From an uncultured delta proteobacterium (GTDB lineage: Bacteria; Myxococcota_A; Polyangia; Haliangiales; Haliangiaceae), in NCBI GenBank assembly GCA_963848295.1, contig CAWKDB010000002.1, positions 32,001 through 96,000 of the forward strand: 64,000 bases of DNA, read 5' to 3'. Made by a program: the position numbers and the translations under genes. The notes beneath the pieces are model-generated. The model ran no database searches. It was not told where the DNA came from and saw nothing but the letters and a program-made list of their open reading frames with translations. Within the stretch, counting starts at the first letter, position 1. Each line of letters starts with the position of its first letter. Positions 31,632-63,255 of the stretch are shown here, one piece after another.

Positions 31632-31714
31632 GCGCGGGTGGTGGAATGGTAGACACGGGGGCCTTAAAAGCCCCTGCCCGAAAGGGCATGCGGGTTCGAG
31701 TCCCGCCCCGCGCA
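31632..31714 (+). tRNA. tRNA-Leu (anticodon TAA), long variable arm, CCA not encoded
   Basis: Acceptor GCGCGGG/CCCGCGC, D-arm GTGGAATGGTAGACAC, anticodon arm GGGGC-CTTAAAA-GCCCC, variable arm TGCCCGAAAGGGCA, T-arm GCGGG-TTCGAGT-CCCGC. Confidence 0.95.
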
Positions 31715-31715
31715 C
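31695..31715 (+). repeat. attL core (3' end of tRNA-Leu)
   Basis: Identical to 43706-43726. Confidence 0.9.
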
Positions 31716-31760
31716 GAAGGATGCGAGCGATTCCGTCGACGTAACGGAGTCACCCCGCTC

Positions 31761-31782
31761 TGTTGGCACACCGTTGCCACGG
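31761..31782 (+). promoter_or_regulatory. Putative integrase arm-type sites, left end
   Basis: TGTTGGCACAC-CGTTGCCACGG tandem, matching TGTTGCCACGG x2 at 43544-43565. Confidence 0.6.
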
Positions 31783-33022
31783 AGTCGCGCTTGCCGCGGA
31801 GTCGCATGTCGACCGCGCGCGCTGGCGGCGCGATGACGACGCGAGCTCCGAGCTGAGCGACGACTCGCCGGCTCGGGTCGAGCAGCTCGGCGCCCGCCGT
31901 GAGGACGTCGTCGGGGATCGGCCACGCGTGCGCTTCGGCGTGGTGGCAGTAGCGGAGCGTCATCCCCATGTCGGCGTGCCCGAGCCACGCCTGCAACCGG
32001 AGCGGGTTCACGCCGAGCAGCGCGAGGTGCGTCGCGTACGTGTGCCGAAGGCAGTGCCAGCTCCGCTCGGTCAGGCCGGCGATGCGGCACACGCGGTAGA
32101 TGCCGTGCTTCGACAGCGCCTCGCTCATGGGCTCGCTTGCGTCGTCGGCGACCACGCGGCCGGTGCGGATGCGCGCGAGCTGGCGGAGGTGAGCCGACGA
32201 GCCGCGGAGTCATCGGCACCGTGCGCGGCTTGCCCGACTTCGGGACGCCTTCGACGCCGCGCCGCAGGTGCCGCGCGACCGTGATGGTGCCCGGCGACGA
32301 GGTCGAGGTCGCGCCACTCGAGCGCGAGCATCTCGCCGACGCGGAGCCCGCAGTCGGCCACGAGCAGCACCGCCGTCCCCCAGGGCTCGCCGTGGTGCAG
32401 CGCCGCGCCGACCATGCGGCCGAGCTCGTCGAAGTCGAGCACCTCGATGGGTGGCGGCGGTGGGTTCTTGACCTTGATGCGGGGCGCCCGCTCGATGACG
32501 CCCACGTCCTCCGCGTAGCGCATGGCCGTGCTGAGCGTGGCGAGAATGTTCGCGCGGGTCTTCGCCGACAGCAGGCCGGTGCGCCCGCGCCTCGTCAGGA
32601 GCTCGGCGCGGAGAGCGTTCACGGCGCCGAGGTCGATCTCGTCGAGGCGCAGCGGGCCGAGCGTCGGCTCGAGCCACGACCTCGAATATGTACCGCTTCG
32701 ACTCGAGGGTCGCGACCCGGTTCTCACCCTCGCCGCGACATCGCTCGGTCCAGTAGCGACCGCGGTAGTCCTCGACGGCGCTCGTGACGCCGCCGCGGAA
32801 CCACGCGGAGAGCGTCGGGTGTGTCCGCGCGCGCCAGCGAGCCCGGCGCGTACCTCTCGACCACCGCCTCGGCGAGCGTTCGCTCGACGTGCTCGCGCTC
32901 GGCGACCTCGGCCGCGCGCTTCGTGTTGACGTTCGGCGTGCCCGAGATGCGCAGCTTGCTGCCGTCGGGCAGCTTGACCACCACGCGGTAGCGCCACACG
33001 CCGCGCGCGTCGCGATACGCGC

Positions 33023-33763
33023 TCACTTCGACCCCCTGGCCGCGCGCATCTTCGACGGCGACGACGCTCCGCGCGGCGACTTGCCCGCCGCGAGCGCGCG
33101 CTCGCGCGTCCACAGCGAGTACTCCCCCTCGCGCGATGGCGACACAGCGACCACGCCTGAGGCGGGGTCGGCGAGTAAAGCCATAATTGCGCGGCGAGCG
33201 CCGCGCCAGTCGAGGGACCGTCCGAGGCGCCCGCCTGCCCATGCGGCAAGCCCCTTCCACGTCAGCGGCTTGTCCGCGCTCGACAACACCTCGATGAACG
33301 CTTGCGTCATCACCTTGCGTGCCTCGAGCTCGCGCGCAATCGATTCCCGTGCAGTGCGACGAGCTTTTTGCTGGGCCCGAGACAGAGCCTGGAAGTCGGC
33401 GGCCTCGGGGCATGCCCCTACGAGAACGTGCAGGAGCGCGTGGGTCGTCCCGGGATCGGCATTCTTGAACCCCGTCACCACGTCCTCGTAGTCGCGAAGG
33501 ACCTCCCAGACTCCAAGTGCGCCATCGCGGCGCGTGTAGACGTACTCGCGCTCGTCCACGCCACGAGTGCCGATGCCGAAGTGGACGCCCGCAGGATCGA
33601 ACGTCAGGTCGAGCGCGGTGAGCGCGAGGACAACATCCTCGCTGTGGCTGAGCCACCGATGAAAAGTAATCGGCGCGTCGCTCGCCGCGAGGTACGTCGG
33701 CACGTCGTCGCCTGACATCTCGACGACGGGCTTCCGCTTCGTGGTGGTCTTTTTCTGCGGCAT
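33023..33763 (-). CDS. Hypothetical element protein, coupled to integrase start
   Basis: MPQKKTTTKRKPVVEMSGDD.. 246 aa open frame; TGA overlaps the integrase GTG. Confidence 0.55.
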   Translation of the reverse strand: MPQKKTTTKRKPVVEMSGDDVPTYLAASDAPITFHRWLSHSEDVVLALTALDLTFDPAGVHFGIGTRGVDEREYVYTRRDGALGVWEVLRDYEDVVTGFKNADPGTTHALLHVLVGACPEAADFQALSRAQQKARRTARESIARELEARKVMTQAFIEVLSSADKPLTWKGLAAWAGGRLGRSLDWRGARRAIMALLADPASGVVAVSPSREGEYSLWTRERALAAGKSPRGASSPSKMRAARGSK

Positions 33764-33991
33764 CACGACTTCGACCCCGCCGAGCTCGAGCGCTTCGCCG
33801 CGCGCACGAGCACCTCGCGCGCCCATTGCATCGTGGCGAGGCCGGCATCGCGCGCGGCGCGGTGAAAGAGGTCGCGCTCGGCCGCGGTGAGGCGCATCGA
33901 GAGCACGACGTCGGACGCGTGCTCGGCGCGTGGCTTGCGACCGGCCCCGGTTCGGGGGCCGCCGTGCTTCGGGGTGCGGTGACTTGGGCAT
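33760..33991 (-). pseudogene. Small DNA-binding protein: GGxRxGAGRKP motif plus ribbon-helix-helix, frameshifted
   Basis: Removing one C in a CCCC run gives MPKSPHPKHGGPRTGAGRKPRAEHASDVVLSMRLTAAERDLFHRAARDAGLATMQWAREVLVRAA. Confidence 0.6.
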
Positions 33992-34188
33992 GTCCACGAG
34001 AGTCTACCTTTCGTAGTTCGGTTTCAAGAGATAACGATCGACGGAATCAAGGTCGACGAACGACCTCGAGCTCAGGCGTGCGCCGACTCGACTGCAACCG
34101 GCTCGAGGTCAACCACATCGACTGCCACACGACACCCGCACTACTAGTGCGGGGCAGGCAGTGCTGTGTACATGCAGCCGGGTAGATG

Positions 34189-36486
34189 TCAGGCAGCAGT
34201 CGGGCCGGTGTCGGTCGACGCCGGAGCTGACAGTGCCCAAAGGTCACGGCTTCCGCAGCGCCTACTGCGGCGAGCGCGAGGTCTCGGCGTCCACAGCAGG
34301 GATAGCGAGCGCGCCCCGCGGTCGGGTGGCACCTCGACGACGCTCGAGCCGGGGTCTGCGAGCAGTCGCAGCGACCGCCGCGCGCGAGACGTCGCGGCCC
34401 ACACGCCGCCGCGATGCGTGCGGATGCTCACGCGCCACCGATTGAGCGAGCTCGCCGCTGGCGGCGAGCGTGGCTTCGCGCCGCTCGCCGTCGAGCTCCG
34501 CGGCGGTCGACTGGCGAGCTTCGCCTTCCGCCCCTCGCGCACCTCTCGCGCCGGCCTCGCCGCGCCGTCGACCGTCCAGCGGCCGGTGCGTCCGCAGTAG
34601 CCCGCCGGGATGACGACGTCGCCGGTCCCCATGCGGCAGCTTGCCGAGCGAGAGCTCGACTGCACACGTTCCGTCGGGAGCGCTCGGGGCCGTGACCGCC
34701 GATGGCGACGGTGAGGTGCGCGGCGCGCTCGATGGCCGCGGACTCCGCGCCGGTGTCGGTGGTGTCGGCGCCGACGGCCTCATCTGCGCGCAGCGACCGC
34801 GACGCCGCGCGCGACGTCTGAGACACGGCGACGGCGAGCGACGCGGTGCGACCTGGCACCACCGAGCGACGTGCCTCGATGACGTCGGACGACGCGCGCC
34901 CGCTGGTCGTGCGCCGAGTCGACGGCATGATCTGCACGTAGTCGACGACGACGAGCATCGGTTCGCCCGGGTGGCGCTCGACGAGCTGCGCCCGCGCCGA
35001 CTCGAGGCCATCGAGCGTTGCGTCCTCGCCATCAATCACGACGAGCCGCTCGGGCAGCGCCGAGAGCATCGTCACGTCATCGACCTGACCGCGGATCACT
35101 TCGCGGCCACGAGTGGCCTCGGCTCATGCCGACGACGCGCGCGTCGACGAAGCGCGCCGGCAACTCGCGCGATAGGTAGAGCGCCGGGCCCAGATTGTTG
35201 GCGTGCGAGCATGCGAGCTGCGCAGCGAGCGACGACTTGCCCGAGCCCGTCGAGCCGATGACGCACGACGAGCTCGCCGCTTGGGACCCGGGCGAGCTCG
35301 CCGGGGTCGAGCTCGAGCGTGACCCACGGCTCGCGCGCCCGGGCGCGAATCTCGGCGACGCGCTCTGCAGGCGTCCGCAGCCTCGACCGGCTCGCGCTCG
35401 TCTCGACTTCGGCGTGCCTAGGGCGAGGGCCTCGCGCACGAGCGCGGCGCTGCTTCGATGCGCCGCGCTCACGGTTGCCACCCCGCGCAGTCGAGCGTCC
35501 GTTCAGATCTTTGTGTGGTGCCGAAGTTCGACGAGCTCGGACACTCGCGGTCGAGCACGAGGCCGTGCCGGCTACGAGCTGCGGCGCAGCGCCGCGTGCG
35601 GCACCCGCCGCGCCACTTCCGCCGGGGCCGTCGTCATGCGGCGACGATGAGGAGCTCGCCGATGCTCAAGTCACGGACGATGCGGCGCAACGCATCGACG
35701 ACGTCGGCCATGCGGCTTCGCATCGTTCGCGCCGAGCACGCGACCGCGTGCGGCCAGAGCACGCGCAAGCGGTCAGCGTGTCGAACAGGCCCTCGGCGCA
35801 GGATGACAGTGTCGGACGAGCTCGGTTACGTCTGCACACGCCCGACGAGCGAGCTTCGAGTCGTGCCGCCACCGGGCAGCACGCGCACCTTGGTCTGGTC
35901 GGCGGCCGCGCGCGAGCACGCGGTACACGACCATCTGACGAGCTCGCCGTCGAAGCCATGCAACCGCACGGCGACATCGCCGCACGCGCGGAAGCGCACG
36001 ACGCGTCCGCAGATCGGCAGCGCCGGTTCAAGACCGCGACGGCGCGAGGTACGTCCTCGCCCTTCGGGTGTCGCCACTGGAACGCGCCCCACGCTCGCTC
36101 GGCGCTCGCGCGCCGCGCGAGCACAGCATCGAGGTCGACCGCCCGCTGGCTTCGCCACGCGTCGAGCGGGTTGCTTCGGCGACTTCGCGCCGAGACGCGC
36201 GATGCTCTCCGGCGACCGCGAGCACCTTCAGAAAGTCGCGGCGGCCCGTCGAGGCCTAGGTACCCCGCGATGAGCGAGAGAACGTCGCTGCCTTCTCGCC
36301 GCACGCGTGGCAGTGCCACTCTCCGCTCGCCCGATTCACGGCGACCGAGGCGCGTCGATGCTCTACGCCGCTCGGGCACGACTTCGCGCGGAGCTCGTCG
36401 CTGCCGTCGTACGGAATGTTGAACGCGTCGAGCACGAGCGACGCGTGACCGACGAGCGCGCGCTTCACTTCGACGGCGCGCATCAT
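34189..36486 (-). pseudogene. Primase-helicase (Zn finger + TOPRIM + DnaB-like helicase), multiply frameshifted; ends approximate
   Basis: CP..H..SVAVN...WHCHACG zinc finger; EGLFDTL TOPRIM; GSTGSGKSS Walker A, YLSREL, VVVDYVQI Walker B, AESAAIERAAHL. Confidence 0.75.
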
Positions 36487-36793
36487 GGTGCACCTCGTCG
36501 GCCCGCGAGCTTCGGCGGCGTCCACTCGCCGCGCGCCCACGCCTCAATGTTCGCAGGCGAGCCGAGCCAGCGACGGCCAACGCGGCGGAGTACGCCGTCG
36601 TTCTCGAGCTGCGCGATAACTCGAGCGGAGCACCGTGACGCGCGACATGCCCGAGCACGTTCGCGACGAACGGCCGAGGACATCGAGCGCAGCTTGGTGG
36701 GTGTGCTTCGAGCTCGCCGAGCGCGGGCTGGCGTTGGTCGCGAATCACGACCGCGCTCCGCTCCGCGCGCGCGTGGGTTCGCCGCTCGGTCAA
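36483..36793 (-). pseudogene. Small HTH protein (AlpA/Xis-like), frameshifted
   Basis: Reconstructed ..VANVLGMSRVTVLR..IAQLENDGVLRRVGRRWLGSPANIEAWARGEW; stop overlaps primase start. Confidence 0.45.
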
Positions 36794-37031
36794 CTAGCGA
36801 TGCGCTTCGGCGGCGATGAGCTGCTCGAGCTCTCCGCTGCGTAGCTCGAGGACGCGCTCGAGCGCGCGCACAGTGCTCTGGTGCGGCGTGAGTCGGTTCT
36901 CTTCGATGCGGGCGACGGTGGTGCTCGACGTCGCGGGCGCGACTCGCGAGGTCAACGCGCCGCCAGCCGCGGGCTACGGCGATGCTCGCGGACGGCGTCC
37001 CGAGCGACAATGATGGTTTCTTGGTGCCCAT
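36794..37031 (-). pseudogene. XRE/Cro-family HTH regulator, frameshifted
   Basis: With three single-base corrections reads MGTKKPSLSLGDAVREHRRSRGWRRVDLASRAATSSTTVARIEENRLTPHQSTVRALERVLEL. Confidence 0.6.
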
Positions 37032-37146
37032 GTTGACGCTACTCTCGGTTGGGAATTCGTCTCCAGTGGCCGTCAAAATCAAAATCCCAATCCCTCGACC
37101 GCGCTCGCTTGAGCGCCGTCGCGCCGTCACCGACGACGGCCGAGGT

Positions 37147-37734
37147 ATGGGTCCGCTGCGACGCGAGGACTACGCACAGTGGTTCGCGGAGTACCCGCAG
37201 CTGCGCCAGCTCGCGTCTCTCGCGACGCGGGCGTTCGACATCGCTGATCGCGAGTCGGTGGACCTACGTAACGACCGACGCGGCCGACCGCGCGACCGAC
37301 ACCCAGAGGTCGCCGGTTTCGTACGCTGGGCGGTCGAACTAGTCGGCCCCAAAGTTCTGGCGCTAACGCTCGTCGTCGGTGGTGTGCTCGATGACGGCGC
37401 CGGACGATACCTGGCGGGTCAACTCTCGCCGCGAGACCGACGCGATTCGAGCAGGCCCGATAGCCGCACCGGCCTCCGGCAGCTTGCGATGCGGCTCGAG
37501 CAGATTGCGCGCGCTGCGCGCCGTCGCGAAAAAGTGAGGCTGGTGATCGCTGCAGGAACCGATGCCCGCGGGCTGAACGACCACCACGGCGACACGCGTT
37601 TTCCACGACCGCGAATCGCCGCTGCCTCGAAGGAGTTCCTTAGCCGATGCCGCTCAGCTGCAAGAGCGCGCGCGTCTCGCCAGCTGTCAATTCGCGTGCG
37701 TTCACGCGCTGGCCGCGTGCCATCGCGGCGATGA
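37147..37734 (+). CDS. Hypothetical protein divergent from the XRE gene
   Basis: MGPLRREDYAQWFAEYPQLRQL.. open frame after an AT-richer intergenic stretch; 3' end uncertain. Confidence 0.35.
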   Translation: MGPLRREDYAQWFAEYPQLRQLASLATRAFDIADRESVDLRNDRRGRPRDRHPEVAGFVRWAVELVGPKVLALTLVVGGVLDDGAGRYLAGQLSPRDRRDSSRPDSRTGLRQLAMRLEQIARAARRREKVRLVIAAGTDARGLNDHHGDTRFPRPRIAAASKEFLSRCRSAARARASRQLSIRVRSRAGRVPSRR

Positions 37735-39021
37735 ACAGCGCGCGCAACCTGTCGGTCCGCGTGCGACTTGCGCGCTCGCGATGCGAGACGCCTCCATCGC
37801 TGCGGGGCGTATCGAGCGGCCGACCGACATCGCGGAACCGCAGGTCGAGAGCATCGTCTCCGAGACCGAGGCCGCCGAGTCGTGCGCGCACTTCGTCGGG
37901 CGTAGCGGTGACCGCGTTGATGCTGACCCGCCGCCAGTTCGGCCGCGCGCCGCTCTCGCACCTCGCGTTCGTATCGGGCTTGCTTGCGGCTCGAAGCGAT
38001 TCGCGAGGCGGCGCGACCGGGCGGCGTCGGGTTGACCGTGCGCCATCCCGATGACGCCCGGCATCTCCACGCCGGCCGCACGCGCGACGCGTTGCACGTC
38101 GTCGGCGGTGAGTTCAAATGCCGGCGGCATCCGCGGCGGTCGCGGTGCCGAAGGAGGCGCCGTCGGCTTCGTCGAAGCGGGCGCCGGAGCTGGCGCGGTC
38201 GGCTTCCGTGTCTTCGCTGCTCTCTGTTCCCGGTGGACGAGTCGCAGCAGCGGGTCCGTGGGTAAGGTGGGCATCGTCGTGGTCTTCCGTGATTGTGAGG
38301 TTGGTGTCGGACGTGAGCTGCGCATCGGCGGCGCGGCCCGCTCGTCGAGCGCGTGCTCGACCGCAGCGTTGCTCGGAAAAGTGCAGAGCATCTGTCGCTG
38401 CGCCACCGCGAGTACGCGCGGTTCCAGCCGGGCGGTCTCGTGCGCGCGATTTCTTGTCCGTCGACTCGAGCGCTCTGCGCCGAGCAGCAACGCGGCGACG
38501 CGGTCGGCGATGTCGCGGTCGCCGCGATCGAGCGCAGCATCGAGTTGTTGCACGTGGGCGGCGAAATAGCTGACCCATGCGGTCGCATCGAATCTTGTCG
38601 GGGATGCGCTGGCGTTGGCTGCTCACGCCGCACGCTCCACGAAGTGGTCGGCCTCGACGAGCAGCGCGTTCGCAAGTGCGATGACGAGTGCACGGTCCCG
38701 CATGGTCGTCAGCGAGAAGGCTTCAGCGTGAAGCCGGCGGGCACGGCGTCCGAGACCTTCGCGACGCCGACAGTGCGTTGATACGTCCCGCCGGCCGCCG
38801 ACGTCGGGCAACCGGCTTGCGAGGCGTAAGGAATCGAGTCCGGGACCATCGGCCATCTCGGGGCCGCGCCACCGTGCGAAGCCCGCGGTCCCGCCGAGCT
38901 TGAGCGCCTGGTTTCGCGGCGTCGCGTGGTTCACCGGCGAGCGCGGTGGGCTGGTGCCGGCTCGCGGCGCTTCGACCGAGGGCGAGTTGTGCGGAGCGTT
39001 GGTGGTTGACTTCGTGGACAT
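37640..39021 (-). other. Two or three frameshifted hypothetical genes transcribed divergently from terS/terL
   Basis: ATG 39021 (MSTKSTTNAP..), coupled GTG 38626, and MPTLPTDPLLRL.. fragments; no family recognised. Confidence 0.35.
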
Positions 39022-39075
39022 AGTCACAATTCTATTGCACCTGCAAGCCGATGTCAGCTGGTATCGTGATTTGTT

Positions 39076-39726
39076 ATGACGCCGAAGCCAGTCACGCCCG
39101 CCGAGCTCGCTCGACTCCGCGCCGCGTTCACGTCTCGCCGACCGTCGAGCCCGTCCGACTTCGCAGCGGTTGCCGCCGACGTCGGAGTGACCTCGGGGCA
39201 GGCCCGCCGCGCGTGGCTGTACGGTTGGGCCGCCGCAGGTATCGCGCCGCTCGAGCGCGAGCTCGGGTCCGCCGCCGCGGCGCAGCGCCAACTCGGCGTC
39301 GCCGTCGCCACCGCCGAGATGGTCGCCGACGAGTGCGTGCGACGCGCGGCCGAGCTCGGCGAGCACGTCGCCGGGCTCGTGCCGGTCGCGAAGCGACTGG
39401 TCGCGGCGCTCGTCGACGCGCCCGACCTCGCGCAGCTGGCTCCGTCGCTGGCGTTGTCGGCGCTGCGCCAGGTGACGAGCGTGCTCGGTCGCGCGGGCAA
39501 CGTCGCCGCCGACGCCGTCGAGCTGCAACGGCTGGTCGGCGGTCAGGCCGGTCGTATCGTCGCCGTGCAACACGGCGCATCGCCCGACACGATCGACATC
39601 GAGGCCGCGGCTCGCACGCTCGCCGGAACCCAGCGCGCGCTCGAGCGCGCGGCGAAGGCGCGAGCGCCCGCCGCGCCGGACGTCGTCGGGTCGACGGAGC
39701 CGACCGGAGACCCGCGTGTCAACTGA
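39076..39726 (+). CDS. Putative terminase small subunit-like protein
   Basis: N-terminal HTH-like FAAVAADVGVTSGQARRAW, helical body, overlaps the start of terL; call rests mainly on position. Confidence 0.45.
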   Translation: MTPKPVTPAELARLRAAFTSRRPSSPSDFAAVAADVGVTSGQARRAWLYGWAAAGIAPLERELGSAAAAQRQLGVAVATAEMVADECVRRAAELGEHVAGLVPVAKRLVAALVDAPDLAQLAPSLALSALRQVTSVLGRAGNVAADAVELQRLVGGQAGRIVAVQHGASPDTIDIEAAARTLAGTQRALERAAKARAPAAPDVVGSTEPTGDPRVN

Positions 39727-41148
39727 GCTCGCCGCCAACGTCGACGCGCAGCGGCGAGTGTGGGCGCAGCTCGCGAGCCGCGACTTCCCGACGTTCTGCG
39801 AATTCGTGCTCGAGGACGAGGCGGGCGGCGAGGTGACGCTCGCGCCGATGCACCTCGAGTGGTGCCGGCTCCTCGACGAGCATCCGCGACTTGTCATCTC
39901 GGCGCACATCGAATCGGCGAAGACATCGCTCGGCGTCGTCGCTCGCACGCTCTGGCTCCTCGGTCAGAACCCATCGGCGCGCATCGCCATCGTGTCGAAC
40001 ACGGCGACCATGGCGCAGAAGATTCTGCGCGATCGTCGCGAAGTACATCGTGGGCTCGACGCGGCTGCGCGAGGTGTTTCCGGCCATCGCGCCCGACTAC
40101 AACTCCTTGTGGCGAGCGAACGCGATCACCATCGCTCGCCCGACGTTCACGCGCGACCCGTCCGTGCAGGCGCTCGGCACCGACGGCGCGTTGCTTGGCA
40201 GCCGACTCGACGCCGCATTCCTCGACGACGTCGAGACGTACGCCTCGACCTGCACGGTCGAGGGCCGCGCGAAGGTCGCGGGGTGGGTGCGCTCGACGGT
40301 GCTGACTCGACTCGTCAGTGGCGGTCGCGTCGTCGTGCTCGGTCCCGCGTGGCACGGAGCCGACCTCCTGCACACGCTCGAGGCCGACGGATGGCCGACG
40401 TATCGCTACAGCGTGCAGGATGACGAGGGCCGGTCGCGCTGGCCCGAGCGGTGGCCGCTGGCGCGCATCGCCGCGAAGCGAGTCGAGCTCGGTCGTCGCG
40501 CCGCCGCGAACCAACTCGACGTGGTGCCGCTCGCCGAGGGCGGCAAGATTGACCCGGCGTGGGTCGACGCGGCGCTCGCTCGCGGAGCTCGGCGCCCGCT
40601 CTTGCCGTACGTGCACCAAGCGCCCGACGGGTGCAGCATCGTGTGCGGCGTCGACCTCGCCGTGGGTCAACAGAAGCACCACGACCGCACCGCCATCGCG
40701 ACCGTGTTCGTGCACCGCGACGGACACCGCGAGCTCGTCGCGATGGAGTCGGGGCGCTGGACTGCGCCCGACATCGTCAAGCGCATCCACGCCGTCAACG
40801 AACGGTTCCGCCCGGTGTGCATCCTCGTCGAGAGCAACGCGGCGCAGATGTACATCGTGCAGATGACGCGACAGCTGGCCTCGGTGCCGGTGCGCCCGTA
40901 CACGACCGGCGGTGGCACGCGGTCACTGCACTACGGCGTCGACGGCCTCTCCGTCGAGCTCGAGCGTGGGCAGTGGACGATTCGAGGAGGGCGACCCCGA
41001 GGTCGAGGGGCTCGCGCGCGAGGTCTGCTACTACGACCCGCGCGCTCACGTCGGCGACCGACTCGCAGCGCTCGTGCTCGCGCGCCACGCGGCCGAGCAG
41101 CGCGCGAACCGCGTCGAGTTCTTTCATCACGACTTCAGCGCACGGTAA
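39716..41148 (+). pseudogene. terL: Terminase large subunit, frameshifts near 40030 and 40985
   Basis: ISAHIESAKT Walker A-like, RIAIVSNT, GSRLDAAFLDDVET Walker B, GPAWHGADL, GVDLAVG..HDRTAI RNase H nuclease, VESNAAQ. Confidence 0.78.
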
Positions 41149-41662
41149 TACCTATGCGGTCGTGGTGGAACAGCTCACCGACTGGTCGACCGAATGGTTT
41201 GACCTTCAGGTGACGCAGCAACGCTTCTACGCGTCGGCGAAGGTCGAGTCTCGCGCCAGCTCCAAGGACCTCTGCGTCGGACCTCCAGGTTGTCGACTCT
41301 CGTGTGACCGCGATTGGGAGCGATGCACTTCGATGTTGGCGGTCAGGAATCGTGGCACCGCGTCGGAGACAGCCTCGCGCCGAAGGCAATCTGGTCCACT
41401 GCTTTCACGAACCGTGTTGGGCTCCAAGCGTTGAGATTGTCGAGAGGCCGCGGACCGGACGGCTCCCCGGCCAGGCTCTGTAACTGTGCGACCTTCCGAA
41501 ACATAGACGCACGGCGTGGCGTTCGACGTGAACCATGAAATTAGACGCCTGACAGACGCGGACACAGGGTACGTCGTGCGGACGATTAATGACCACTGGA
41601 CGCGTCTACTCGACGAGTCGAAGAACATGGCCGAGGACGTGCTAAAGAGGGCGTTACAATGA
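41149..41662 (+). pseudogene. 5'-truncated, frameshifted conserved hypothetical gene (first of cargo operon; possibly TIGR04255-like)
   Basis: WSTEWFDLQVTQQRF..MHFDVGGQESWHRVGDSLAPKAIW..VAFDVNHE..INDHWTRLLDESKNMAEDVL; no start codon after the terL stop. Confidence 0.5.
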
Positions 41663-42207
41663 GCCGTCAGTAGCGCTCAGCTTGCGTTCGACCTCACGAC
41701 GGCCGCAGACGCCGTGGTCGATGGGAGGCACTTCGTCGAGGGGGAAGGCGGACGACGCCTCCGCGAAGCGTGTGGAATCGGCTAAGCGCGTGGCCCGGAG
41801 AGCTCCCCCTTCGGAAATTCTTGCTCCAGAGACCGCCGCAGAAGACCGCCGCGATGAATCTGCCAGTCAGATTATTTTGCAGAGTTGGGAGTGCACGGTG
41901 CTGAGCGTCAGCGACGACGTGTTTGTGGCATCGCTCCGCTCGCTCCGGGATCCAACTGCCCCCGAGCTGGAAGCCGATATCCCTCGCGACGATGTGACGC
42001 CCGACGACCTCGAGCTACTCGAGCCGGGGCGGTGTTCTATGGAGCATTGGATACGAAACGCGGGGCGGACAGCGCCGTTGCGCGTCGCAACTCGCTTTTC
42101 GACGACTGCCGGCGTGGACCCAGCGCGACGTTGACCGTGTCCGAGATCGAGCGAGAAAGCTCTTCGCGGAGTTCGGGAAGCCCGACGATGGCACCACCCA
42201 GCGCTAA
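41659..42207 (+). pseudogene. Conserved hypothetical gene (second of cargo operon), frameshifted
   Basis: LQSWECTVLSVSDDVFVASL..EADIPRDDVTPDDLELLEPGAVFYWSIGY..FRRLPAWTQ; ATGA coupling upstream, 20-bp overlap downstream. Confidence 0.55.
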
Positions 42208-43263
42208 CGAACTCGAGGTCTCGATCTTCGGGCGAGGCGTCGGGGAGTGCATAGTTGTCCAGTCGGTGGCGGTAAGTGGGTCGTGATCGACTCTTGTACG
42301 AAGCCGGAAACGAACGAGCCCGTCGCGCTCGAATATCTGCGGTCGCTCGGGGTCGCCGTCGAGACCGACGTCGTTGCGCTCGTCGTCACGCACTGGCACG
42401 ACGACCACATCGCGGCGCAAGCAAGTTGCTCGAAGCATGTACGGCCGCGGAGTTCTTTTGCTCCGCGGCGTTGAATCGCGCCGAATTTTTTCAGCTCCTC
42501 GAGTCGGCTGGCCAATTGGTTCTTGCGGCTGGTTCCGGTTCGGGTGTCGACGAGATGGGGCGGGTCTTCTCGGTGCTGAGCGAGCGCAAGGCGCGCGGAG
42601 GGAAAGTCACGTCGCCAGAATATGCGCTCGCAAACAGGGTCATCTACCGACGCGCGAAGCTCGGAGAGGTTGCTGAGTGCACCATCGAAGCGCTGAGCCC
42701 GAGCAGCACCTCCCTGACGCGGGGGCTCCTGTCGTTCACGCCGGCAATCGGCTCGCCCAAAAAGACGATTCCGAACCCGGGCCCGAACGAGCTGTCGGTC
42801 GCGTTGCACGTGCAGCTCGGATTCGAACGCGGCTCTCCTCGGCGCCGACCTCGAGGTCGGCTCGTCCGACGATGTCGGCTGGCGTGCGGTCGTGCTGAAC
42901 GGCCGCCTGCCCGCAGGCAAGACCGCAATCGTGAAGGTTCCCCACCATGGCTCAAAAGGCGCAGACCATCCGCCGATGTGGGCGACGCTCGTCGGAAGCG
43001 ACCCGCACATCGGCGTGACGCCCTTCAACTCGTCGAGCCTCCCCCGGCCCGACGACATCGCCCGGCTTCGCACCCGCTCGCCGAACGTTTTCCACGCCTC
43101 CCCCAAGCAAGGGCGAAAGCTGAGGCTCGACAACACGAGCCAGAGAATCCTCGACGGTTTAAAGATTCGCGAGCGAGGGGGCTCGCTCGGCCATATTCGT
43201 TTCCGCGCCCCGGATGGGGGCGCTGCTACGTGCGAGCTCTTGGGCGCAGCCGAAGCGGCCTGA
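42188..43263 (+). pseudogene. ComEC/Rec2-like metallo-beta-lactamase-fold hydrolase, frameshifted
   Basis: ELEVSIFGRGVGECIV, WVVIDSC, THWHDDH, NELSVAL, LLGADLE, VKVPHHGS, TPF motifs across four frame segments. Confidence 0.75.
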
Positions 43264-43465
43264 CCGCCCCGGAAGCCACCTGCCGACGACTGGCGACGAA
43301 TGCCCGAAGGTCGCTCGCGAGCACGCGCACGACGTTGTTACCGCGGCCGAAGCGCACCGCGGGGAGCTCGCCGGCCCGCACGTGGCGGAGCACCGTCTCG
43401 GTGCAGCACGCGAGCGCGGCGGCCACCTCGCGCGGTGTCATGAGCTCGTCGCCGTCCATCGTCAT
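43226..43465 (-). CDS. xis: Excisionase-like HTH_17 protein
   Basis: ELMTPREVAAALACCTETVLRHVRAGELPAVRFG..VRVLASDLRAFV, next to attR. Confidence 0.8.
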   Translation of the reverse strand: MTMDGDELMTPREVAAALACCTETVLRHVRAGELPAVRFGRGNNVVRVLASDLRAFVASRRQVASGAVRPLRLRPRART

Positions 43466-43543
43466 CGAGCTTGAACCCGCCACCGAGCGCTCGTCCACCA
43501 CGGACGACCATGGGCGACCAGCGCCGCTTTTCGGAGCCCGGCC

Positions 43544-43637
43544 TGTTGCCACGGTGTTGCCACGGCGCGTTGTCGCGAGCTGTCGCGAAGCGTTTCGAGC
43601 TGTCGCGAAGGTCGACGAGGATTCGACGAGATTCGAG
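43544..43637 (+). promoter_or_regulatory. Putative arm-type and Xis-binding repeat array near attR
   Basis: TGTTGCCACGG x2 (43544-43565); TGTCGCGA at 43571, 43581 and 43601 (10-bp phasing). Confidence 0.6.
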
Positions 43638-43705
43638 AGCGGCGGCGCGAGCTTCGACTACATCTCGTGCGTCTTCGACGAGATGGCCGCGCCGCCGTTT
43701 GCTAT

Positions 43706-43726
43706 TTCGAGTCCCGCCCCGCGCAC
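43706..43726 (+). repeat. attR core (duplicated tRNA-Leu 3' end)
   Basis: Identical to 31695-31715. Confidence 0.9.
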
Positions 43727-43791
43727 TCTCGACGTGGCCGCAACGCCGCGTCACTCGCAGTGCTCGACGGTTTGCAAGGCGAGGTCGCGCG

Positions 43792-44534: not shown

Positions 44535-44557
44535 GGTTCGAGTCCCGCCGCGCGCGC
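44535..44557 (+). repeat. Degenerate third copy of the tRNA-Leu 3' end (older attR)
   Basis: GGTTCGAGTCCCGCCGCGCGCGC, 21/23 identical to 31693-31715. Confidence 0.7.
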
Positions 44558-44604
44558 GGCTCAAGCATCGCGCCGAGAGCGCGTCCGGCTGTAGAGTAAG
44601 GCCC

Positions 44605-60558: not shown

Positions 60559-63255
60559 ATGGCAAGGGGTACCCGCGCTCCGTCTCAGCACGCCTACCGC
60601 GGCGCGGTCGGCCACACGCAGACCGCGAACATCCACGTCTCGACCGGCAAGGGCGACGTCGTCGCGACGGTCTACACCGCGATCGACGCGGTCGATAACC
60701 CCGAGCTGGTCGCGCGGCTCCACGCCGACGAGCTGAACGTGATCGCGACACCGGGCGGCGAACCGGTGCGCGCCGCGGTCCCGGTCGTCTATCACGACTC
60801 GGCAGCCGAGCTGATGGTGCTCGTGCTGAGCGATGCGCATCGACATCGCGAGCTCGACGAGCGGATCGCGTTGCTCCAGCGTTTGCGCGACGATACGTCG
60901 CCGATTCCCGGCTACGTCAAAGACTTCGCGGTCGCGTACGGCCCTGCCGGGTTGCGCGCGTATCTCGAGCACCGCGCCGAAGAGGCGCTGGTCAAGGCGA
61001 GGTCGCCCGAGGGGACGCGCGAGCGCGAGCTCGATCGCCGCAAGGCCGAGCTCGACCACCAGCGCGCCGACCTCGAGCGCGTCCGCAACGAGCTCGATCG
61101 CACGCGCAGCGAGCTGACCGCGAAGCAGGCCGAGCTTTCGCGCCGGAGCTCGGGTCCGATCGCTCGCGTCGCGCCAGTGGCCGAGCCGACGTCCGACGAG
61201 ACGACGATCGGCGCGCCACCTTCGCCCGAGGACATGGCCACCGCGCCGGTCGGCCGGTTCTCCTCGCTCAACACGCCACTGCCCGCGCCGCTGCCGACGG
61301 ACCCGGCGAGCGCACCGGTCGCAGCGGCGGCCGCCCCGAACGGCGTGTTCCATCACGAGGTCGATCACGATTTCGACGACGGTCCGACCGGGTCGGCGAT
61401 CGTGCCGCAAGGCTCCGATCCGCTGACGACCGAAACCGTCGAGCTGCCTGTGCAAGCCGATCCGTGGCTCGACTTCGCCGCCACCGGCGCGGCGTCGAGC
61501 TTTCACGTCGAGCACGGTCGCGTTCGGCTCGCGCTGATCGCCGACGAGCAGGTCACGCGCGGGCTCGGCGGCGAGCTCGATATTCGCGTGCTGCTCCATC
61601 GCGCACAGACCTACCCGGTGATCGCGCTCGTCATCGGCCCACCCGCCGCGCTGCGCGTACCGAGCCCGCGTCAGCTCGCGTTCGTCGTGCTCGACGTCGG
61701 CCTCGAGCACGATCGCCAGGTGCTCGATGCGCTCGCGCACGACTTCAAGCTCGAGATCGAGCTGATCGCGCGCGGCCAGTCGATCCGTCACGTCCAGCTG
61801 ATCGCGCCACTCGCCGACAACGTCGGGTACGTCGTGCGCGCCGCCGACGATCACCTAAACGCGCTGACCGCCGACGGCGAGACCGAAGCGTCGTTCGCCC
61901 GCGCTCGCGAGCTCGTGCTCGGAGATGGCTACGACTTGCTCGGTCTCGAGCATACCGAGGCGTCGGAGTTCCGCGACGACAAGCTCGCCCAGCTCCAGAC
62001 CGCCCAGCAACTGCGCCGCGCGATCGCGATGGCGCGGCGGTTCGCTCGACCGTCGCGCGAGGACTACCTCGTGTGTGCGCGGGGCTTCCCGATCTCGCGC
62101 TGGCACGAGCTCCGCCGCCACGTGCTGCAGAGCGCGGTCGCGTGGGGCCTGTGGATGGGCCCGGAGCTCGCGCAGGTCGCGGTATCCGAGGGTCTGGCTC
62201 GATCGCGCCGCGATCTGATCGTCCGGCTCGGTGCCGGGTTCGAAGCGCTGCGCGCAAACCCCGCGGCGAACGACATCGACTCCGATGCCGCGGCGGACAA
62301 CGCGAAGGCGCTCGCCGAAGAGGCGAGGGCGCTCGGCGTCGAGCTCGACGCCGACGTCTACGGCAAGCTCAACGGCCACTCGAACGGTCACGCCGCGATC
62401 GCGAGCGAGGATCGCCCGGTCGTGTCGGGCTCGATCGAGCGAACGCCGACCCACGCGCTACACGGCACATCGACGCCGGAGCTGATCGGCCTGCTCGACG
62501 ACAAGAAGCATCGGCTCGCCGCCGCGATCGAGCTGTGCGATCGCGGAGAATCGGCCGCCGCGCCGCTGATCGTCGGGACCGCGAAGAAGCTACCGCGATC
62601 CGAAGCGGTCCGCGTGCTCGGCAAGTCGGTCAAGCTCGGCCCGCCGGCGGCGCAGTCGCTGATCGATGGCCTTGGCAGCAGCAAGGCGTTCCTGCGCCAC
62701 GGCTGCGCGCTCGCGCTCGCGCTGCTGCATACCGACGAAGGCACGAGCGCGGTGATCGAGCAGTTGTTCGCCGAGCCGACCGAGATCTGGCGCGAGATCG
62801 CGCGCGCGATCGGCCAGATCGGGACGACCGCGCTGATGCCGCTCGCCGCGCAGACCGGCCGGCTCGGCGACCGACTCAATGCCCAGGTCGCGGAGCGCGT
62901 CGCCTGGGCCATGGCCCACATCGGCGTACGCGGCGGCAAGAGCTCGCTCGAACAAATGGCCGCGGGCCAGAGCGTGATCGCCCCGATCGCCGCCCACGCG
63001 CTCGAGCTGTTGTCGACCGCGGCGAACGACGACGTCCGGCTGCGCCCGGAGGGCGCTCCGCCGCGCGACGTCACCGTCAATCGCGCGTTCTCGCGTCGCT
63101 TCTTCGAGGCGCTCGAGCCGGACGAAGCGGCCACCGCGCTGGGCGACCTCGAGGCTTCGACCCCGATGGAGCTGCTCGACGAGGCCGATCTCGTCGCCGA
63201 AGAAGAGGCCGACGACGAAGCCGAGCTCGACGAGTCGGATCTCATCCAAACCTAA
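60559..63255 (+). CDS. Large protein with CpXC-like N-terminus, coiled coil and HEAT-like repeats
   Basis: VYTAIDAVDNPELVARL..LN..PVVYHD; coiled coil; C-terminal HEAT-like helices. Confidence 0.65.
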   Translation: MARGTRAPSQHAYRGAVGHTQTANIHVSTGKGDVVATVYTAIDAVDNPELVARLHADELNVIATPGGEPVRAAVPVVYHDSAAELMVLVLSDAHRHRELDERIALLQRLRDDTSPIPGYVKDFAVAYGPAGLRAYLEHRAEEALVKARSPEGTRERELDRRKAELDHQRADLERVRNELDRTRSELTAKQAELSRRSSGPIARVAPVAEPTSDETTIGAPPSPEDMATAPVGRFSSLNTPLPAPLPTDPASAPVAAAAAPNGVFHHEVDHDFDDGPTGSAIVPQGSDPLTTETVELPVQADPWLDFAATGAASSFHVEHGRVRLALIADEQVTRGLGGELDIRVLLHRAQTYPVIALVIGPPAALRVPSPRQLAFVVLDVGLEHDRQVLDALAHDFKLEIELIARGQSIRHVQLIAPLADNVGYVVRAADDHLNALTADGETEASFARARELVLGDGYDLLGLEHTEASEFRDDKLAQLQTAQQLRRAIAMARRFARPSREDYLVCARGFPISRWHELRRHVLQSAVAWGLWMGPELAQVAVSEGLARSRRDLIVRLGAGFEALRANPAANDIDSDAAADNAKALAEEARALGVELDADVYGKLNGHSNGHAAIASEDRPVVSGSIERTPTHALHGTSTPELIGLLDDKKHRLAAAIELCDRGESAAAPLIVGTAKKLPRSEAVRVLGKSVKLGPPAAQSLIDGLGSSKAFLRHGCALALALLHTDEGTSAVIEQLFAEPTEIWREIARAIGQIGTTALMPLAAQTGRLGDRLNAQVAERVAWAMAHIGVRGGKSSLEQMAAGQSVIAPIAAHALELLSTAANDDVRLRPEGAPPRDVTVNRAFSRRFFEALEPDEAATALGDLEASTPMELLDEADLVAEEEADDEAELDESDLIQT

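Follow-up and report, generated by a model that had tools for sequence, protein, structure and literature searches.

Within the window—the whole 64,000-nucleotide stretch of DNA analyzed here—three genes follow each other on the forward strand between positions 41149 and 43263. Gene A (41149–41662, +), a 5′-truncated and frameshifted homologue of DS-42A, is covered by family-profile matches at 41138–41275, 41320–41442, and 41474–41653. Gene B (41659–42207, +) is a frameshifted homologue of DS-42B with profile matches at 41844–42029 and 42037–42180 (iE 5e-17 and 1e-16). Gene C (42188–43263, +), the DS-42C homologue, encodes a ComEC-like MBL-fold metallohydrolase; its frameshifts lie at about 42261, 42409, and 42822, and its stop codon ends at 43263. 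An earlier note on this DNA had described three overlapping genes, and this layout stands: an ATGA at 41659–41662 joins genes A and B, and the ATG of gene C at 42188 precedes the stop codon TAA of gene B (42205–42207), which yields the 20-bp overlap. The metal-binding motifs noted for the third gene are likewise found, namely THWHDDH (the HxHxDH motif, 42388–42408), GADLE (42841–42855), and KVPHHGS (42934–42954). Also, the trio is AT-rich as claimed, with a GC content of 63.5% against 70.6% in the rest of its element and 68.2% genome-wide; 107 of 3670 equal-sized windows of the genome show a GC content as low.

The trio is carried by an element of about 12 kb that is integrated at a tRNA-Leu. 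This tRNA-Leu(taa) gene (31632–31715, +) provides with its 3′ end the left attachment site, and the right attachment site (43707–43727, +) repeats the tRNA 3′ end in 20 of 21 bases. A tyrosine integrase gene in at least two frames (31667–33249, −; PHROG 1, E 1e-16 and 2.5e-15) lies at the left border. Upstream of the trio, the frameshifted gene for the terminase large subunit (terL; 39716–41148, +) matches PHROG 38 on two pieces (E 2e-32)—its C-terminal piece being read from the frames—and its stop codon abuts the truncated gene A. Downstream, a convergent excisionase-type HTH gene (43226–43468, −; Pfam HTH_17, E 1.8e-10, and PHROG 66) overlaps the end of gene C, so that the position between terL and xis proposed earlier is correct. 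Further content of the element (31716–43727) comprises weak DnaB-like and primase zinc-finger pieces, and a PHROG scan of 17 of its pieces matched neither a portal nor a capsid. The satellite status suggested earlier is unproven: lacking a portal or capsid match, the element fits a truncated prophage equally well and may be either a satellite or a prophage remnant. Among the matches listed for 30 relatives, just the tRNA, the integrase, and short stretches of the element recur. A third near-copy of the tRNA-Leu 3′ end (92%) is located at 44535–44558 of the window, 831 bp past attR and near the start of a host gene. Elsewhere in the window (62345–63068), ARAGORN reports a permuted tmRNA of 724 bp with the tag ARSNKWPRARA, of which both length and tag look doubtful.

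Condition of this copy

In the frames of the assembly, none of the three genes is open, and each is matched by homologue profiles in two to four pieces. At least 12 indels break the trio, as worked out by hand from contigs and profile matches. In two of the three public sequencing runs, which come from a single study, short contigs of depth 2–3.4 cover parts of the cassette, the shares in the three runs being small (0.10, 0.07, and 0.00). At each of the 10 breaks that they cover, these contigs carry a frame-restoring indel, of which eight were read from the indel table and two from loose ends at 41479 and 42261. Each indel rests on one shallow contig, and the breaks near 41282 and 42035 as well as the gene A–terL junction lie outside the cover. 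Since the contigs undo every covered break, the indels are probably assembly errors, and the frameshifts likely represent long-read consensus errors.

Alternatively, this copy might be a true set of pseudogenes in a decayed prophage with all breaks being real, which we consider doubtful. Frame switches amount to 3.1–3.3 per kb in the element against 0.8–1.0 in the host flanks—52 genome windows show a median of 0.95 and a maximum of 2.86 per kb—and the whole 12-kb element is hence frameshift-rich at about three times the host rate. Gene A is cut exactly at the terL stop, at a junction outside the contig cover, the element bears no portal or capsid match, and the contigs, which differ from the window by 1–10 substitutions each, could stem from an intact sister strain. 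On the contrary, the seven matched segments contain no premature stop in 509 codons, compared with the at least 12 indels of the trio, and the frame is restored at all covered breaks by contigs that carry few other differences. In any case, such decay would bear on the state of this copy and not on the function of the family.

While the frameshifts are likely errors, the start of gene A may truly have been deleted. The gene A profile match starts at position 40 of 220, right at the terL stop, leaving about 39 N-terminal codons absent; hence, the best-conserved N-terminal motif is missing, and this copy, if the deletion is real, would be inactive. Decay of the cassette does occur in places: locus L075 bears an IS-type transposase pair inside gene C, and locus L089 about 2.5 kb between genes A and B.

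Homology to DS-42

The earlier note could match the trio to no named system. This does not hold, as all three genes are homologous to DS-42A, DS-42B, and DS-42C in the same order. DS-42 (working id PRO1; WP_249925928.1, WP_001024069.1, and WP_001198055.1) stems from DeWeirdt et al. (Science 2026, PMC13092281), in whose accessible parts it is named in the supplementary tables and not in the main text. These tables call gene 3 a ComEC-like MBL (HHpred) and gene 2 CHS5_N (78%), and the phenotype consists of a single phage row, Bas1, with a −log EOP of 1.10 (about 12-fold) and smaller plaques, flagged as replicated. Literature searches with bioRxiv supplements outside their scope returned no later work on DS-42, and the available portions of the Ambrosia paper and of PMC13069673 contain no description of the trio.

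Family profiles were built from intact homologues with the DS-42 proteins left out. The gene A profile matches DS-42A with an E-value of 3e-19 over positions 9–215 (hhalign 99.6%), the gene B profile DS-42B with 3e-14 (99.1%), and the gene C profile DS-42C with 3e-84 (100%); they have no other match in the E. coli locus of DS-42, whose record places exactly the three accessions between Q and holin. Compared directly, a tblastn of DS-42A against the window gives a weak match (E 0.05) and of DS-42B no match; with an intact homologue as intermediary, genes A and B reach about 23–35% identity. With each break filled by X, the window MBL shares 30% identity with DS-42C across 312 aa (E 6e-43), its nearest relatives being about 41% identical. 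In a tree of 42 sequences, made up of every second alignment row, the window, four further homologues, and four outgroups (ComEC and three Avs1a-like proteins), the window MBL and DS-42C group in one clade apart from the outgroups (FastTree support 1.0).

As in DS-42, the genes run in the order A–B–C, co-directional and tightly coupled, with matching sizes (238, 190, and 363 aa in DS-42), and both trios are prophage cargo. They differ in that gene B here keeps a C-terminal helix that is absent from DS-42B, and in that the present host is GC-rich and carries the trio after terL instead of between Q and holin. The MBL identity of 30% is low, and the window copy is broken and read from sequence only. 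Judged by this homology, the trio is a distant, damaged member of the known DS-42 family.

Structural elements of the three proteins

Intact homologues of gene A comprise about 220 aa, for which a curved antiparallel β-sheet backed by helices is predicted (pLDDT 95.9). The fold matches are middling, with McsB at Z 8.1 (rmsd 4.5) and TBP and RepD at TM ≤0.37. An identity as Rep_trans, TBP, McsB, or AdoMetDC was rejected, as such scores (TM ≤0.37, Z ≤8.1) lie in the range of common arrangements. Together with invariant residues of the types G, P, W, L, I, and T, this leads us to claim no enzyme. The half-pipe fold of PabI was discarded as well, being absent among the 50 fold matches listed. A relation to TIGR04255, which the earlier note had put up for checking, finds no match at E 0.05 with three intact homologues and an hhalign probability of 0.3% against an alignment of TIGR04255 matches, although the two may share a fold.

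Gene B bears a variable N-terminal region with a family median of about 84 aa, followed by a domain that is predicted to adopt an OB-fold of the cold-shock/S1/eIF5A type (pLDDT 88.7 for the C-terminal domain model). Mostly OB-folds top the fold search, led by IF5A (Z 7.0, rmsd 2.4, 63 aligned residues) and joined by EF-P, Unr, CspB, cold-shock domains, and the LysRS anticodon domain, with no match at E 0.001 or Z 8. We thus assign gene B a predicted cold-shock/S1-type OB-fold. Neither gene A nor gene B has a significant named family in PADLOC, NCBIfam, Pfam, or PHROG; the Atlas provides unnamed clusters alone for gene A and no usable named match for gene B, and PDB sequence searches yielded nothing useful for either. 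PADLOC has no model for gene A, gives a marginal Avs1a match (E 0.006) on one gene B open reading frame, and matches the MBL weakly.

Gene C was claimed earlier to be a ComEC-like MBL, and ComEC chains are indeed the closest solved ones (E 4.5e-10). Across 65 sequences, its metal-binding residues vary hardly or not at all. The spacing from HxHxDH to HHG extends over 172–189 residues (median 183, n = 61), compared with 146 in the host's own ComEC and 200–206 in three Avs1a-like proteins below the cut-off; gene C hence bears about 35 extra residues between the metal motifs, as measured against this one ComEC. Weak matches were obtained to LmuA-MBL, RTasMBL, Avs1a (30 of 420 bits), and 6A-MBL (37 of 220 bits). 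A class B metallo-β-lactamase was rejected (≤27 bits against cut-offs of ≥100), and so was an identity with Trypsin-MBL, Avs1a, or HamM, given the Avs1a score above and genes A and B without a protease match. For the PADLOC 2.0 systems Lamassu, DRT-MBL, and PDC-M48, the partner genes are absent.

The trio shares the ComEC-like MBL fold, the KxxHHGS motif, and the extra sequence between the metal motifs with the protease-gated defence MBL nucleases Avs1a, HamM, VcMBL, and AtMBL as well as with LmuA-MBL of Lamassu, RTasMBL of DRT, and 6A-MBL. However, its scores are far below the cut-offs where these exist, it forms a separate clade, and it comes without a protease, STAND, SMC, RT, or ubiquitin partner. 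ComEC/Rec2 combines an OB-fold, a membrane channel, and an MBL nuclease. The trio resembles it in its closest solved MBL chains and in the pairing of an OB-fold with an MBL, but has no membrane domain and splits these parts over separate genes; the host bears its own ComEC at C2:1052678–1055167.

Distribution and genomic context

When the C-terminal MBL piece was searched against 301 genomes of the phylum, four strong matches beside the window itself came up, each of them an intact trio; gene A occurs in these four genomes as well, out of 300 others—a patchy distribution. For gene A, 55 proteins were aligned, 53 of them from 120 listed homologues and the other two from loci, and a search with this alignment provided 80 genome loci, the best 80 of 91, plus two viral loci. 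In these 82 gene-A-anchored loci, of which four end too soon, gene C is present in 78 of 78 and gene B in 77 of 78, in the same order. The MBL-anchored set (17 viral loci, of which four weak ones were dropped, the best 80 of 351 metagenomic loci, and two plasmid loci) carries gene B in 81 of 81 and gene A in all 62 loci with enough upstream DNA. These sets contain a few duplicates, and loci were anchored on gene A or the MBL with gene B being counted as partner only. The co-occurring three-gene module proposed earlier is thereby confirmed: the trio is obligate. No recurring fourth gene and no recurring protease neighbor accompanies it.

According to the record titles, the family extends over Myxococcota, Acidobacteriota, Planctomycetota, Verrucomicrobiota, Spirochaetota, Actinomycetota, Proteobacteria, Bacteroidota, and archaea. 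For gene B alone, the representatives of clusters at 50% identity include 5,400 relatives. A search of 50,697 phage records returned no match and one of 72,556 plasmids two, and a viral search with the C-terminal MBL piece of the window found none. Two gene B relatives may be fusions that reveal a partner: P0132 (359 aa) with about 160 extra C-terminal residues, and P0121 (227 aa) with two matched stretches.

Housekeeping genes make up most of the nearest neighbors of the trio. Categorized by hand, RM, TA, or nuclease-type families account for 10 of 123 adjacent neighbors and 3 of 89 that are more than 6 kb away (p = 0.25); the Pfam scans behind these counts used different thresholds (1e-5 and 1e-8), and at the stricter threshold the count is 9 of 123 (p = 0.37). 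Hence, the enrichment in defence islands that the earlier note had asked about is not significant—for genes from a simple caller and in binned genomes, which under-represent defence islands. Still, some positions are of the prophage cargo type: the trio follows terL in L108, L136, and the window, and lies between Q and holin in L233–L235. It is found beside DNA methylases in L140 and L143 and after a type I RM/Abi operon in L145. In 61 of 64 loci, its GC content is lower than that of the flanks.

Proposed function

The note's candidate anti-phage role is borne out as probable through the homology to DS-42, which protects weakly against Bas1. By analogy, we consider it probable that the trio is an anti-phage nuclease system, in which a DNA-cutting gene C product would act with two helper proteins. 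According to the accessible parts of two preprints, related defence MBLs are DNases that loop insertions keep shut until a protease frees them, and the characterized ones cut DNA, not RNA (10.1101/2025.11.14.688446, 10.1101/2025.09.03.673762). In analogy to these, gene C might be a latent Zn-dependent DNase whose inserts block the active site. Gene C would be held and released by gene B, a predicted binder of single-stranded nucleic acids, together with the β-sheet protein of gene A, which might serve as a sensor or scaffold. As the trio carries extra residues in the same part of the MBL but no protease, we infer that genes A and B form the gate, which would open gene C by binding in place of proteolysis.

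An anti-phage function is supported by the ordered homology of all three genes to DS-42 and the phenotype of the latter, the obligate co-occurrence, the intact metal motifs, the weak matches to defence MBLs, the longer spacing of the metal motifs than in the host's ComEC, the cargo-type positions, the patchy spread, and the GC content below that of the flanks. Against it stand the modest protection by DS-42—about 12-fold in one phage row and with no mutants reported, as far as the accessible part of PMC13092281 goes—and the distance of the window lineage from DS-42, with 30% identity for gene C and about 23–35% for genes A and B. Also, the neighbors are mostly housekeeping genes without significant defence enrichment, matches are missing or scarce in phage records (0 of 50,697) and plasmids (2 of 72,556), and the fold scores are middling (Z ≤8.1 for gene A and ≤7.0 for gene B).

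The MBL superfamily also takes in RNase Z and RNase J. An anti-phage system in which gene C is an RNase or nucleotide phosphodiesterase, guided by gene B to RNA such as tRNA or mRNA, appears quite unlikely to us. The best OB-fold matches of gene B—IF5A, EF-P, Unr, CspB and other cold-shock domains, and the LysRS anticodon domain—are of RNA-binding types that suit an RNase as well as a DNase, and gene C shows a weak RNase Z match. However, the fold class alone leaves the ligand of gene B unfixed, the closest solved relatives of gene C are the DNase domains of ComEC, and the defence MBLs characterized in the preprints above cut DNA.

Taken alone, the locus is an unremarkable, damaged representative of a system already published. 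DS-42 is weakly validated with two genes unannotated, yet gene B is widespread, and linkage within the trio is strict in many phyla as well as in archaea. This makes the DS-42 family a testable case of an MBL nuclease that would be controlled without a protease. Besides, the trio has the unexplained habit of often standing alone between duplicated host sequence.

Insertion sites and mobility

In a first set, from which nine truncated or near-duplicate loci were dropped, direct repeats of 23–241 bp within 700 bp on each side surround the trio in 8 of 60 loci; among control pairs, 2 of 310 show such repeats (p = 1e-5). A second set, sharing one locus with the first, gave 6 of 40 against 0 of 57 controls. 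In 9 of 60 loci, a tRNA gene is found within about 500 bp (L028, L034, L039, L040, L044, L053, L073, L091, and L098; 9 of the 13 tRNA genes found). Two genomes of the same genus have only the cassette in common (85–89% DNA identity), at different sites. No terminal or inverted repeats are conserved between loci.

Alternatively, the trio might mainly be a selfish addiction module of the TA or RM-like kind. Gene C would then be a toxic nuclease and gene B, variable in its N-terminal region, an unstable antidote; gene A would act as second antidote or regulator, and phage protection would be a by-product. We regard this as unlikely, though it would account for the stand-alone insertions among housekeeping genes, the excess of flanking repeats, the shared cassette at different sites, the weak protection by DS-42, and the fact that gene C never lacks genes A and B in loci of sufficient length. 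Moreover, like insertions with long target duplication, flanked by repeats, are described for RM genes (PMC2853133, accessible part). Conversely, no HTH or RHH autoregulator is recognized in gene A or B, the prophage cargo positions suit defence equally, and the repeats may be attachment sites that outlasted the collapse of an island.

The anti-phage reading keeps our preference. Like RM systems inserted with long target duplications, the trio is a small cassette without recombinase, flanked by host-sequence duplications of 23–250 bp. In contrast to RM systems, it has no methylase or PD-(D/E)XK gene, and it is known here from occupied sites alone. With still greater reserve, one might regard the DS-42 family as a recombinase-free selfish cassette with nuclease-driven insertion and long target duplication, of the kind proposed for RM genes. 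An OB-fold protein and a saddle-shaped one that belongs to no known family would then gate its MBL in place of a protease—a reading that we hold to be quite unlikely. If true, it would describe a new control of MBL nucleases and a non-RM example of such mobility in many phyla.

Single loci illustrate the duplicated borders. In L136 (5379–10317), a 94% identical copy of the terL 3′ end, 250 bp long, comes after the trio. Elsewhere, 3′ ends of host genes, duplicated or orphan, form its border: a thiol peroxidase end of 241 bp in L064 (9714–12525), a C-terminal piece of ilvD in L062 (12342–12644), and a UvrD_C_2 helicase piece in L045 (12289–12648). In L044 and L091, a second copy of the tRNA end lies opposite the tRNA, with little but the trio enclosed.
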